IMG/VR virus record: IMGVR_UViG_3300047316_000726
Coordinates: 6,949-70,948 of that record
Source: a virus
DNA: 64,000 bases
Reading direction: 5' to 3' (one strand)
Shown here one piece after another: positions 43,846 through 63,787 of the stretch; position 1 is the stretch's first letter, and each line of letters starts with the position of its first letter. The notes below the pieces were generated by a model. The model was not told where the DNA came from. It was given only the letters and a program-made list of their open reading frames with translations, and made no database searches. The position numbers and the translations under genes are program-made.

Positions 43846-44484
43846 TCAAAGTCCCAGCTTCTCGAGCGGGTTGGTCAGATTGACGAACAGCGTGATCACG
43901 TCCGCGTCGTACGGCCACCGCGCCACACCGCCGTCGATGTCCAGGTGGCAGAGGGTGCGGCTGGGCATGGTGTAGCCGATCTCCAGCGGAACTCGGCCAG
44001 GACCGATGTGGTGCGGCATGATCAGACGCTCGGCGTAGTCACGCGGGCATGACGGCAGCAGGCTCGCCGCCACGGTGCGCTCGACGAGGATCGGCTCGTC
44101 CCACTCCAAGTAGCCGTCCTGGTCGGCGCAGTTCTGATCGACATCGACGACAGCGCGAAACGGGCCAGGCAGATCAGCGACCGCCGCCGCGTTCTCGGCA
44201 CGGCAGCGATCCGGCTGCGGCGAGGGCACGCGGCCGATGCGGATCTGTCCGTAATTGCCGACGTGCCTTCCTGCGAAGACGCAGACGAACGCGGCGACCT
44301 GGTTGAGCGGCCAGTTATTACGGGAACTCCGGAAGATCTGGCCGATCGTGTCCACGTAGCTGGCCTTGAATCTGCGCCCGGCTTTCAAGTCGGCGCGGAC
44401 GCGGGCGAACTCGGCGGCTCCTTCCGGGTCGGACAGGATGCTGGAGAGCGCCACGTCTGCGGCTTGCTCGTGAATGGTGGTCAT
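43846..44484 (-). CDS. Hypothetical protein
   Basis: AGGAG RBS, overlaps the recombinase stop. Confidence 0.65.
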   Translation of the reverse strand: MTTIHEQAADVALSSILSDPEGAAEFARVRADLKAGRRFKASYVDTIGQIFRSSRNNWPLNQVAAFVCVFAGRHVGNYGQIRIGRVPSPQPDRCRAENAAAVADLPGPFRAVVDVDQNCADQDGYLEWDEPILVERTVAASLLPSCPRDYAERLIMPHHIGPGRVPLEIGYTMPSRTLCHLDIDGGVARWPYDADVITLFVNLTNPLEKLGL

Positions 44485-45551
44485 GGGCGGGGAACTCCTC
44501 GACTCGCGTGGGCAGTAGGCGTGCCACCAGCGAGCGCGGCGGCGACCAAGGTGGACGGGTCACGTTCGAGTTCGTCGGCGACGTGGTCGTAGAGCTGGGT
44601 GACGGCGGCGGAGGAGTGGCCGAGCGCGTCGCGGCGGTCTTCCAGCGTCGCGCCGAGCTCGCGGGCGATCGTGTTCCAGGTATGCCGCAGCGAGTGCGGG
44701 GTGATCCGGTGGGGCATCGGTACGCCGGCGAGCGCGGCCATGCGCTGCACGAGTCGGAAGACCTGGTGGCGGCTGACTCGGCGACCGTCCCGGGTCAGCA
44801 GCAGCGCGCGGTCGGCGTCCAGATTGCCCGGCGCAGGCGCAGGCCGAGCCGCGAGGTAGGTGTCCAGCTTTGCGCCGAGTTCGGGTGGGATGACGCGGTC
44901 GCGCATCTTGCTGCCCTTCATACGGACGGCGATGATGCGCTTGCCCTTCTTCTGGCCGAGGTCGTCCAGGTTCGCCCCGCAGCCTTCGGACACGCGGATA
45001 CCGAGGTCCACCAGCAGTCCGAAGATCAGCGTGACGCACTCGGCGGTCAGCGTCCGTGGTGTTCCGGTCTCGCTCTTCGCTTGGACCGCGGTGGCCTGCT
45101 GGCGGTCGAGACTGGATGTGGGGGAGTGGGTGCGGTCGTACTTCGGGCGCTTGAGGTCCTTGGCCGGGTTGGCCTTCAGCACGTCGGCCCGGACGAGGTA
45201 GGTGTACCAGCTGGACACTGCGGCGAGCATGTTCGCCCTGGTGTTGGGCTTGTAGGGGCGCTTGGTGGTCGGACTGGTCATCGAGGCGAGGTGGACTCCG
45301 TACATCGTGATCTCGGGCAGACCGACGGTCAGCGGGTCGAGGTCGCGGCTGATGCACCAGTCGAGGTAGATGTTGAGCTGCCGCCGGTAGGACTCGCGGG
45401 TGTGCTCGCTGTCGGCCTGCTCGCCGAGCCACGCCATCACAAGCGCGCCGAGCGTGTGGCCCGTGCGGGTGCGCATGGAGAGCAGCGCGCCGCGCCGCGC
45501 GGCTGGTGAAGCTGGGTCGGCAACCGGGTTGATGATCACAAGGTCGGCCAC
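44481..45551 (-). CDS. XerC/D-like tyrosine recombinase
   Basis: SAM-like N-domain; catalytic R (GIRVSE), K (MKGSK), HxxR (HSLRH), LGHSS, Y (QLYD); GAAGGGA RBS before GTG at 45551. Confidence 0.9.
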   Translation of the reverse strand: MADLVIINPVADPASPAARRGALLSMRTRTGHTLGALVMAWLGEQADSEHTRESYRRQLNIYLDWCISRDLDPLTVGLPEITMYGVHLASMTSPTTKRPYKPNTRANMLAAVSSWYTYLVRADVLKANPAKDLKRPKYDRTHSPTSSLDRQQATAVQAKSETGTPRTLTAECVTLIFGLLVDLGIRVSEGCGANLDDLGQKKGKRIIAVRMKGSKMRDRVIPPELGAKLDTYLAARPAPAPGNLDADRALLLTRDGRRVSRHQVFRLVQRMAALAGVPMPHRITPHSLRHTWNTIARELGATLEDRRDALGHSSAAVTQLYDHVADELERDPSTLVAAALAGGTPTAHASRGVPRP

Positions 45552-45565
45552 GGATTTCCCTTCGT

Positions 45566-45593
45566 TGCGCCCATAAGCGTGATTATGCTCGGT
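45566..45593. promoter_or_regulatory. dif/res-like recombination site overlapping the recombinase promoter
   Basis: TGCGCCCATAA-GCGTGA-TTATGCTCGGT (11-6-11); - strand TTGGGG-17-CATAAT promoter overlaps it. Confidence 0.65.
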
Positions 45594-45681
45594 TTTCCTA
45601 GGTGCCCCAACCGGTCCGCCCCGATCGGGCCGGTGGTCAAGTCCGTCCGGTTCGGACGGTCCCCCAGCGTGCGGTGCTGAT

Positions 45682-46046
45682 CTACGCGGTGCCGACGTCG
45701 CTTTCCTCGGCGTCCATGACGATCGGGTCGTCCAGGGTGGCCGCCACGATGGTGACCACCTCGACATGCCCCCCCGAGCCTGTTCCTCGGTCGAGTACCG
45801 GTGGCAGTCCAGGTCCATGCTGCTGCCCTCGGCGAACACCATCGTCTCGAAGATCATCGGGATGCCGTCGCAGTGGCTGTGGTCCAGGCCGAGCCAGACG
45901 GTCGAGATGTCGAAGCTCTTGGTCGGGTCAGCTGCGCTGATCACTTTGGATCGAGCGACCCGCTTGTAGGTCATGTCTCGCAGGAGCCGCTCGACCTCTT
46001 GCATGTCGTTGATGGGGATGCCTGAGCGGTCGAACCAGAGGTCCAT
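45682..46046 (-). pseudogene. Phage hypothetical gene frameshifted at a G7 tract
   Basis: STVWLGLDH...IFETMVF...RYSTEEQARGG; one extra G restores HVEVVTIVAA...TAG and a 121-aa ORF. Confidence 0.6.
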
Positions 46047-62707: not shown

Positions 62708-63787
62708 TCATCCGGCGTCCCGCACGATGCGGAGGTGGTCGCGCTTCTTGAGGGGGCGCAGGGCTTCCGTGGCGGACTCGAAGGCCGTCAGGTCGTGGAC
62801 GTCCGTCGGTGGTTTCGTGACGGCGTCCTGGACGTCGCGGGTGACGCCCTTGGCGTCGAGTGCACGGCTGATGCCTCGGATGCAGGCGGCGTTGGCGAGG
62901 CTGGGCTCGTCGAGTGCGATGCGCCAGCGTCGGCCGAGTTCGTTCAGGAGTGCGGGGACGCCCCACATCGACCAGTCGGTGGTTTGCTGCCGGTGCCTTG
63001 CGGGCGCGGGCTCGTGTGCGTACACGCGCTCGTGTGTGCGCGATGGGCAACTCTCAAGATCACCTTGAGTGGTAGAAAAAACATCTACGTAGGCCGCCCC
63101 AGTTTTCGTTTCGCGGGGGGTCTGGGGGCGCGCGAATGCGCCCCCAGGTTCATGGGTGGTTCCCTGGGTAGTTCCTAGAAGACAGTGCAGGTCCCCTGTC
63201 CGGGATTCTGAGTCCCGGATGTCCGGGCTGTTGAGTCCCGGACACCGGGACTCAGAATCCCGGACGTCGACCCCCGTGAGGCCCCCGTCAGTGCCCTCCA
63301 CTGCGATGGTTGTCCGGGATTCTGCGTCCCGGACAACCAGCATCTGCGGCAACTCATGTCCGGGATTCTGCGTCCCGGACAAGGCGGCCCCAGGCGCGGT
63401 CGCCTTGCCCTTCGCCCGGTACACCCGGCGGTACTCCCGCTCGGCCCTACGCCGCGCGGCGTCCTTCGCCGACAGCTCCTTCTTGTCCTCCATCTCCGGG
63501 CGCTTCAGCGAGATGGCCAACTTCCACTGCGTGTGGCCACTCACCTCGCCGTCCTCGGCAATCAGGCCGCCGTCCTGGAGCCGTTTCAGCGCCCGCTTGA
63601 TGACCCGCGTGTCGAAGCCAGTGGCATACCGGATGCGCTGGATCGAGGGATACGAACCGCTGCCGTCCTTGTGGGCGGCCTCGGCGAGCACGACCAATAC
63701 GTGCCGGGACGTGCTGTCCGGCAGGCCCTTGTCGGTCAGGAGCATCGGCGCGTCGAACAGTGCCCACTTCACGACGTCACTCTTCAC
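62708..63787 (-). CDS. Replication initiator/replisome organizer with N-terminal wHTH
   Basis: VLVVLAEAAHKDG..SYPSIQRI...TG...RVIKRALKRL...GLI (HTH_36-like); internal repeats typical of ori-containing initiators. Confidence 0.8.
   Translation of the reverse strand: MKSDVVKWALFDAPMLLTDKGLPDSTSRHVLVVLAEAAHKDGSGSYPSIQRIRYATGFDTRVIKRALKRLQDGGLIAEDGEVSGHTQWKLAISLKRPEMEDKKELSAKDAARRRAEREYRRVYRAKGKATAPGAALSGTQNPGHELPQMLVVRDAESRTTIAVEGTDGGLTGVDVRDSESRCPGLNSPDIRDSESRTGDLHCLLGTTQGTTHEPGGAFARPQTPRETKTGAAYVDVFSTTQGDLESCPSRTHERVYAHEPAPARHRQQTTDWSMWGVPALLNELGRRWRIALDEPSLANAACIRGISRALDAKGVTRDVQDAVTKPPTDVHDLTAFESATEALRPLKKRDHLRIVRDAG
63197..63381. repeat. Putative origin: five palindromic iterons inside the initiator gene
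   Basis: TGTCCGGGA-N7-TCCCGGA(CA) at 63197, 63220 (variant), 63245 (inverted), 63311, 63357. Confidence 0.75.

Follow-up and report, generated by a model that had tools for sequence, protein, structure and literature searches.

A Xer-like recombinase gene of a phage record and the 28-bp dif-like site ahead of it: a candidate self-resolution unit with relatives near the chromosome terminus in Saccharopolyspora

A 64,000-nucleotide stretch of DNA from an actinomycete phage (the window; bases 6949-70948 of the 77,174-bp IMG/VR record IMGVR_UViG_3300047316_000726) contains a gene for a Xer-type tyrosine recombinase and, directly ahead of it, a 28-bp element resembling the dif sites at which chromosomal Xer recombinases act. 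The locus raises the question of what such a pair does for a phage. The original prediction, made from the sequence letters, offered two functions, an autoregulated resolvase with its resolution site on a circular replicon, or a route of integration at the dif site of the host. Following a computational comparison with phage, plasmid and chromosomal relatives, the pair is read here as a self-resolution unit in the manner of Cre/loxP or MrpA/mrpS that probably also represses itself, with a probability of roughly 0.55.

The dif-like element is present as predicted, with its 11-6-11 layout and inner ATAA-N6-TTAT signature, at positions 45566-45593. On the strand of the gene it reads ACCGAGCATAA-TCACGC-TTATGGGCGCA, with arms that are complementary at 7 of 11 positions, and 14 nt separate its end from the GTG start of the recombinase. 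There is a single ATAA-N6-TTAT motif in the window, and 100 dinucleotide shuffles of the window produced none. No second copy of the core site was found in the 77-kb record, where the closest other stretch has mismatches at 7 of the 22 arm positions. Five exact matches to the site were found in a scan of viral contigs, none of them with a related recombinase, and they are therefore regarded as chance matches.

The enzyme is intact, Xer-like and without an arm-binding domain. Its GTG start is backed by aligned homologues of 74-77% identity, whose N-termini agree with it, and the catalytic residues R186, K212, H286, R289, H312 and Y321 are invariant in an alignment of 25 homologues, which together with the Phage_integrase fold places the protein in the tyrosine recombinase superfamily. 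Pfam searches returned Phage_integrase (PF00589, 68.1 bits against a cut-off of 27.1) and SAM_1 (PF02899, 22.6 bits) and no other domain, and an AlphaFold2 model (mean predicted local distance difference test score 87.8) has two domains, the approximately 35 residues ahead of the core-binding domain forming one short helix and no separate domain. The predicted lack of an arm-binding domain thus held, and neither part of the lambda-type arrangement, an N-terminal arm-binding domain with arm-type sites, was found; for the sites, general repeat scans reported no arm-type repeats, although no search aimed at such repeats was made. Compared with solved structures, the family profile matched E. coli XerD best by sequence (1a0p, both domains, E 2.9e-41), followed by XerA, an archaeal XerC-like protein and XerH, with the Brujita integrase gp33 at 4e-10, and the top fold matches of the model are XerA, XerD and XerH. 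The NCBIfam equivalog scores are 123.8 for XerC (cut-off 335), 115.8 for XerD (cut-off 330) and 60.9 bits for XerS (cut-off 267), with XerA also far below its cut-off, so the recombinase is Xer-like but stands outside those families. The gene encodes the only tyrosine recombinase of the record, in which no serine recombinase was found. Its closest relatives (P0004-P0007, 74-77% identity, one of them on a 96.8-kb contig) form a clade with the phage protein (support 100/99) that is sister to a group containing chromosomal genes.

The linkage between gene and site is conserved in the family. A total of 44 homologue loci of 31-61% identity, covering 430 kb, was compared (14 chromosomal, 2 plasmid, 14 on viral contigs and 14 on metagenome contigs); the family scans of genome and viral contigs were alignment-based, scans with the single protein having given nearly nothing. 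Strict ATAA-N6-TTAT motifs were found 29 times at these loci, and 23 of them fall into the interval from 700 nt upstream to 30 nt downstream of the gene start, which holds 7.4% of the bases and in which 22 of the 44 loci carry a motif. The sites keep the inner CATAA/TTATG, are complementary at 6 to 11 of their 11 arm positions and have arms that differ from one recombinase lineage to the next. In complete viral records (45-104 kb) no more than one or two motifs were counted, one of which adjoins the recombinase gene. A related phage contig of 82.9 kb (G383:C74), with structural genes 49-66% identical to those of the phage in the window, has one site approximately 70 nt ahead of its own recombinase. 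The module was also found on circular plasmids of S. pogona (86 kb) and M. zamorensis and on the circular plasmid-prophages pSLE1 and pSAM1, where the site lies approximately 68 nt upstream of the operon, and on all four elements the site heads a two-gene operon of a small gene followed by the recombinase. The element has the 11-6-11 layout of a Xer-type core site and follows the recombinase through phages, plasmids and chromosomes, and for these reasons is taken as the recombination site of the enzyme.

The pSLE1 element has been described as a pZL12-like plasmid-phage with ParAB (PMC4487206). The operons of pSLE1 (L222:2019-3457) and pSAM1 (L223:1941-3439) consist of a DUF6221 gene and the recombinase gene, with a site that includes ATAA-TTACTG-TTATGTGGATC, and in pSLE1 a second integrase gene adjoins this module.

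A TTGGGG-17-CATAAT promoter had been predicted to overlap the site. Both hexamers stand where they were placed, with CATAAT 30 nt ahead of the GTG start, but TTGGGG agrees with the consensus at only three positions and a sigma-70 promoter scan called no promoter ahead of the recombinase gene; a weak promoter overlapping the core site is plausible. The site extends over the -10 region and the leader. Self-repression of the recombinase gene is therefore likely, in that recombinase bound at the site would lower its own transcription. The same overlap could mean that the palindrome is a promoter or operator and nothing else, bound by the recombinase or by another repressor, with recombination occurring elsewhere or nowhere, and the related chromosomal site considered below also stands at a distance from its ATG that would fit a leaderless promoter. 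This is very unlikely, since Xer-type core sites have this 11-6-11 layout with inner CATAA/TTATG, which persists in family members whose site stands 400-500 nt upstream, before a different gene, or at a distance of kilobases from the recombinase gene, and since the record offers no other candidate site. The base after CATAA is not always T in family members, so that conservation applies to the site rather than to the -10 element.

Binding, recombination, the role in resolution and autoregulation are all inferred from sequence. As pictured here, the 28-bp element would be the core site at which the product of the adjoining downstream gene recombines DNA, in a single-enzyme, simple-site system with one monomer on each 11-bp arm and strand exchange across the 6-bp spacer. 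In common with Cre/loxP-like systems, there is a single recombinase and a single site per replicon, the site is simple and symmetric, and no accessory arm sites were found. With one site per monomeric genome and no arm sites, the natural substrate would be a pair of direct copies, carried by a dimer or concatemer of a circular phage or phage-plasmid genome or by terminally redundant infecting DNA. Recombination between the copies would restore monomer circles and perhaps serve cyclisation, in the manner of P1 Cre/loxP and SCP2 MrpA/mrpS.

Genes of plasmid type accompany the pair. The left part of the record contains a GntR regulator, a 740-amino-acid FtsK-like protein and a Rep-like HTH_36 protein, and a second HTH_36 Rep-like gene (431 amino acids) has five iteron-like repeats inside it, which are interpreted as a putative iteron-type origin within the initiator gene. 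This set of genes resembles that of SCP2, and the plasmid setting of the relatives together with the plasmid-type genes of the record supports the resolution reading. A 740-amino-acid protein with a weak FtsK/SpoIIIE match occurs both in the record (G000:C1:6541-8763) and in the related phage contig (L134:7468-9690); the two are not detectably similar by tblastn, and the combination of phage and Tra-like genes recurs nonetheless.

Relatives of the pair were also found on chromosomes. Exactly one strong homologue is carried by 14 of 201 Pseudonocardiaceae genomes (12 at 56-61% and 2 at 45-48% identity), among them Saccharopolyspora, Allosaccharopolyspora, Haloactinomyces and Actinoalloteichus. 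Seven of the 12 close loci have the site ACCGCGCATAATCGCGCTTATGTGCGGT or a near variant of it, with 12-13 nt from its end to the ATG, and the phage site is identical to this chromosomal site at 23 of 28 positions, including 5 of 6 in the spacer. In the five genomes examined the homologue lies 11-57 kb from the canonical actinobacterial dif and, where this could be checked (dnaA was located in four of the five), roughly opposite dnaA. Syntenic core genes fill the interval from dif to the module, and the interspecies identities of the recombinase (87, 77 and 73%) track those of these genes. A prophage context for the chromosomal homologues was considered and rejected, as the intervening genes are syntenic core genes and the phage shares only the recombinase with these regions, apart from one exonuclease match in genome G142. 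In S. halophila the homologue is accompanied by a separate true XerD, which scores 338 bits, and by a XerC-like gene, which at 302 bits falls slightly short of the cut-off of 335. Among 401 Pseudonocardiaceae genomes the chromosomal site was found in 24, compared with 2 for a reversed control pattern, and is almost always single.

These relatives bear on the possibility that the pair is an arm-less integrase with its phage attachment site (attP), for which the likeliest bacterial attachment site (attB) would be the near-identical site that accompanies the terminus-proximal homologue on the host chromosome; in that case the record would represent a replicating or unintegrated form. Several results favour integration or weigh against resolution. 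IMG/VR labels the record a provirus, excised from a 91.9-kb contig of which it covers all but 14.7 kb, no end overlap indicating a circle was found in the record, and neither was ParA or ParB. Homologues in Arthrobacter and Gordonia phages, 28-31% identical, are annotated as integrases, and arm-less Xer-like actinophage integrases do integrate, the Brujita integrase being among the fold matches. The chromosomal site, 23/28 identical and present in the likely host clade, could serve as attB, and the poor -35-like element counts against the resolution reading. However, the record contains the phage site uninterrupted and away from its ends, which means that the present copy is not integrated through it, and a repeat scan found no att-like repeats at the record ends. 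None of the 24 genomes with the chromosomal site has a same-spacer pair flanking an insert, the second sites present in three of them differ in spacer, and the phage spacer is one base off the sampled chromosomal sites. The genome with the related phage contig, G383, likewise has that site intact and no second copy of it, and the module is found on stably circular plasmids. Integration through this site is consequently regarded as rather unlikely, although it is the main rival to resolution. As for the autoregulated resolvase on a circular replicon that had been predicted, the resolvase and its site are the best-supported reading, through the conserved linkage and the circular plasmid-prophages, whereas the premise of circularity is weakened by the provirus label and the missing ParA and ParB.

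Integration at the host dif was not borne out. A canonical dif was located in genomes of the likely host clade, with the sequence AACGCCGATAATGTACATTATGTTAAGT for S. spinosa; that of F. alni is CACGCCGATAATGCACATTATGTCAAGT (PMC3025954). If the phage site were a mimic of dif, host XerC and XerD would integrate or resolve the phage as in integrative mobile elements exploiting Xer (IMEX) or at cer, and true XerC and XerD are indeed present in the host clade, the inner ATAA-N6-TTAT is common to dif and the phage site, and the arms agree with those of the clade dif at 16 of 22 positions in the best orientation. In total, however, the clade dif matches at 17 of 28 positions with 1 of 6 in the spacer, far from the agreement with the other, non-dif chromosomal site, and the arms follow the recombinase lineage instead of staying dif-like. 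A recombinase encoded by the phage itself stands directly behind the site, whereas classical IMEX elements are not known to encode one of their own. The phage recombinase is also not one of a XerC/XerD pair, scoring below both cut-offs and adjoining a site that differs from the clade dif. A dif mimic is thus extremely improbable.

The chromosomal homologues allow a further, speculative interpretation, which is considered quite unlikely: the phage pair would be the mobile counterpart of a previously undescribed third Xer-type module of Saccharopolyspora-clade chromosomes, docking into or cross-reacting with the host site, or the host module would be a domesticated copy with a role in processing the terminus. 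The third module meant here is vertically inherited and single-copy, has a strictly conserved 28-bp site and lies 11-57 kb from the canonical dif in genomes that possess XerC and XerD as well, and the phage enzyme is 60% and the phage site 23/28 identical to it. With docking or cross-reaction, a tailed phage would be exploiting Xer recombination while supplying a Xer of its own.

Further observations were made at the chromosomal loci. A conserved A+T-rich block containing TTACGTTACTAACGTTA and AAACGAAACGG lies 60-100 nt upstream of the chromosomal sites (L014, L016, L009, L019, L018, L020) and may have an accessory or regulatory role; the phage site has no similar block ahead of it. The second sites mentioned above (S. 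halophila, L220:9809-9836, contig C8; G031:C9:13652; G318:C22:21924) have the same arms as the chromosomal site and the spacers CTCGGC, TCCCGG and CTCCAC; at that of S. halophila an open reading frame (ORF) starts at an ATG in the right arm, and a recombinase-like fragment lies approximately 4 kb off. Gene and site are 25.6 kb apart in A. coralli (L035-L037, G019:C1:2262001-2322000), where, compared with S. spinosa, the intervening genes run in the opposite order and orientation, suggestive of an inversion of the gene-adjacent segment; in H. albus the distance is 2.1 kb. A further 11-6-11 palindrome, TTGATGGATAA-TGTTGA-TTATCCATCAA, occurs with variants approximately 570-660 bp from the canonical dif in four of five Saccharopolyspora-clade genomes (S. 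spinosa, L026:6681-6708; G142, L031:19025-19052; S. halophila, L034:14244-14271; H. albus, L038:6924-6951). Its arms are perfect in S. spinosa and G142 and imperfect in S. halophila, and no conserved recombinase gene was found beside it in the four genomes that carry it.

The window has a G+C content of 67%, and nearly all of its genes are on the minus strand (Table 1), with small early genes occupying 30-70 kb of the window. The recombinase gene had been called mid-operon. It does lie deep within same-strand early genes, at least about 25 kb from either record end, but a 129-nt gap holding a 7-bp hairpin separates it from the gene upstream. The hairpin was not called in a terminator scan and is possibly a terminator without a T-run. 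Searches of Pfam and PHROGs gave almost no matches for the early genes around the recombinase, and blastn of 4.5 kb around the recombinase gene against phage records gave none. The upstream gene is frameshifted at a run of seven G residues, as judged against homologues P0117 and P0119 (ending ...GHVE.V..VA.TLDDPIVMD...). A further homologue, P0118, has a divergent tail beginning at this position, as would fit a shift in the same run; either a sequencing error or slippage at the homopolymer may lie behind the frameshift. The shifted frame reads stop-free into the recombinase frame, which accounts for a fused database gene call of 521 amino acids (P0003). The small upstream genes of the plasmid modules were considered as homologues of this gene and rejected, being not homologous.

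Table 1 Features of the recombinase locus and of the window (positions in the window)
Feature	Position	Strand	Details
Tape measure protein	12.1-15.4 kb
Portal fused to MuF	25.7-28.4 kb
Terminase	28.4-29.9 kb
Downstream gene	43846-44484	minus	212 amino acids; start overlaps recombinase stop (ATGA, 44481-44484); from ORF list; no Pfam or PHROG match
Xer-type arm-less tyrosine recombinase gene	44481-45551	minus	356 amino acids; GTG start (45551)
Shine-Dalgarno-like GAAGGGA	45557-45563	minus	5 nt ahead of GTG
28-bp 11-6-11 core site	45566-45593		plus-strand sequence TGCGCCCATAA-GCGTGA-TTATGCTCGGT
Core site, left arm	45593-45583	minus
Core site, spacer	45582-45577	minus	TCACGC
Core site, right arm	45576-45566	minus
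-10-like CATAAT	45582-45587	minus	5/6 match to TATAAT; spans left arm and first spacer base
-35-like TTGGGG (weak)	45605-45610	minus	3/6 match to TTGACA; 17 nt upstream of CATAAT
7-bp G+C-rich hairpin	45643-45659	minus	CCGTCCG-AAC-CGGACGG; 3' of upstream gene; minimum free energy and centroid folds
Small upstream gene	45681-46046	minus	frameshifted at G7 run (45769-45775); relatives 111-118 amino acids
Iteron-like repeats	63197-63382		five copies of 26-nt palindromic unit TGTCCGGGA-N8-TCCCGGACA, spaced ~23 nt; within 431-amino-acid HTH_36 gene

Simple recombination systems of one enzyme and one site are rare and useful as tools, as Cre/loxP, Dre/rox and MrpA/mrpS illustrate, and the family described here comprises many natural enzyme-site pairs from high-G+C actinomycetes with varied arms and spacers. 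The pair also bears on the question of whether large actinophages with Rep- and Tra-type genes live as plasmids. Chromosomes of the Saccharopolyspora clade, that of S. spinosa included, were found to carry a third Xer-like module close to the terminus; the link of the phage pair to this module and the explicit rejection of the host dif as target are new here.

Among known systems, the IMEX elements CTX-phi and TLC-phi resemble the phage as mobile elements bearing a dif-like site, and published abstracts describe such elements as exploiting host XerCD; the phage differs in having its own recombinase directly downstream and in a spacer that agrees with the clade dif at one of six positions. Brujita-type integrases are, like the phage protein, small arm-less actinophage tyrosine recombinases acting on simple sites, and 5vfz is its fold match at rank 7. 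The integration target of Brujita is a tRNA gene. The family profile of the phage recombinase, however, matches gp33 at E 4e-10 against 3e-41 for XerD, and the phage recombinase adjoins a dif-like site, with no attB found for it.

The Cre/loxP system of P1 likewise consists of one phage-encoded tyrosine recombinase without an arm-binding domain and one simple inverted-repeat site per genome, and it serves resolution and cyclisation of the circular prophage. It differs in that loxP is 13-8-13, whereas the phage site is 11-6-11 with the dif-type inner ATAA/TTAT, and in that the phage protein is far nearer to Xer, no Cre chain having appeared in the profile search and Cre standing at rank 30 and below in the fold search. 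P1 is a plasmid-prophage, whereas plasmid maintenance is a candidate property of the present phage. MrpA of the Streptomyces plasmid SCP2 is a tyrosine recombinase that resolves multimers at the short, oligonucleotide-sized site mrpS and functions in E. coli (PMC3218068, PMC4685060), which provides an actinomycete precedent for a plasmid tyrosine recombinase resolving at a simple site. SCP2 and the phage record both combine GntR, FtsK-like Tra and recombinase genes on one element. MrpA was rejected as a close relative, the match to the phage recombinase covering 69 residues in the N-terminal domain at 25% identity. No ATAA-N6-TTAT is visible in the 210 nt upstream of mrpA, and MrpA is a functional analogue only.

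In arrangement, the pair resembles XerS/difSL of streptococci and lactococci, in which a single Xer-type recombinase is encoded immediately by its own dif-like site as one module (PMC1914069), and XerH/difH, XerH being among the top fold matches of the phage recombinase. It differs from XerS, which takes the place of XerCD at the chromosome terminus under FtsK control, in its score (60.9 bits against 267), in being phage-borne and in that the genomes of its chromosomal relatives keep XerC, XerD and a canonical dif. As in XerS/difSL, the phage recombinase gene adjoins its own dif-like site, and its chromosomal homologues are also terminus-proximal modules.

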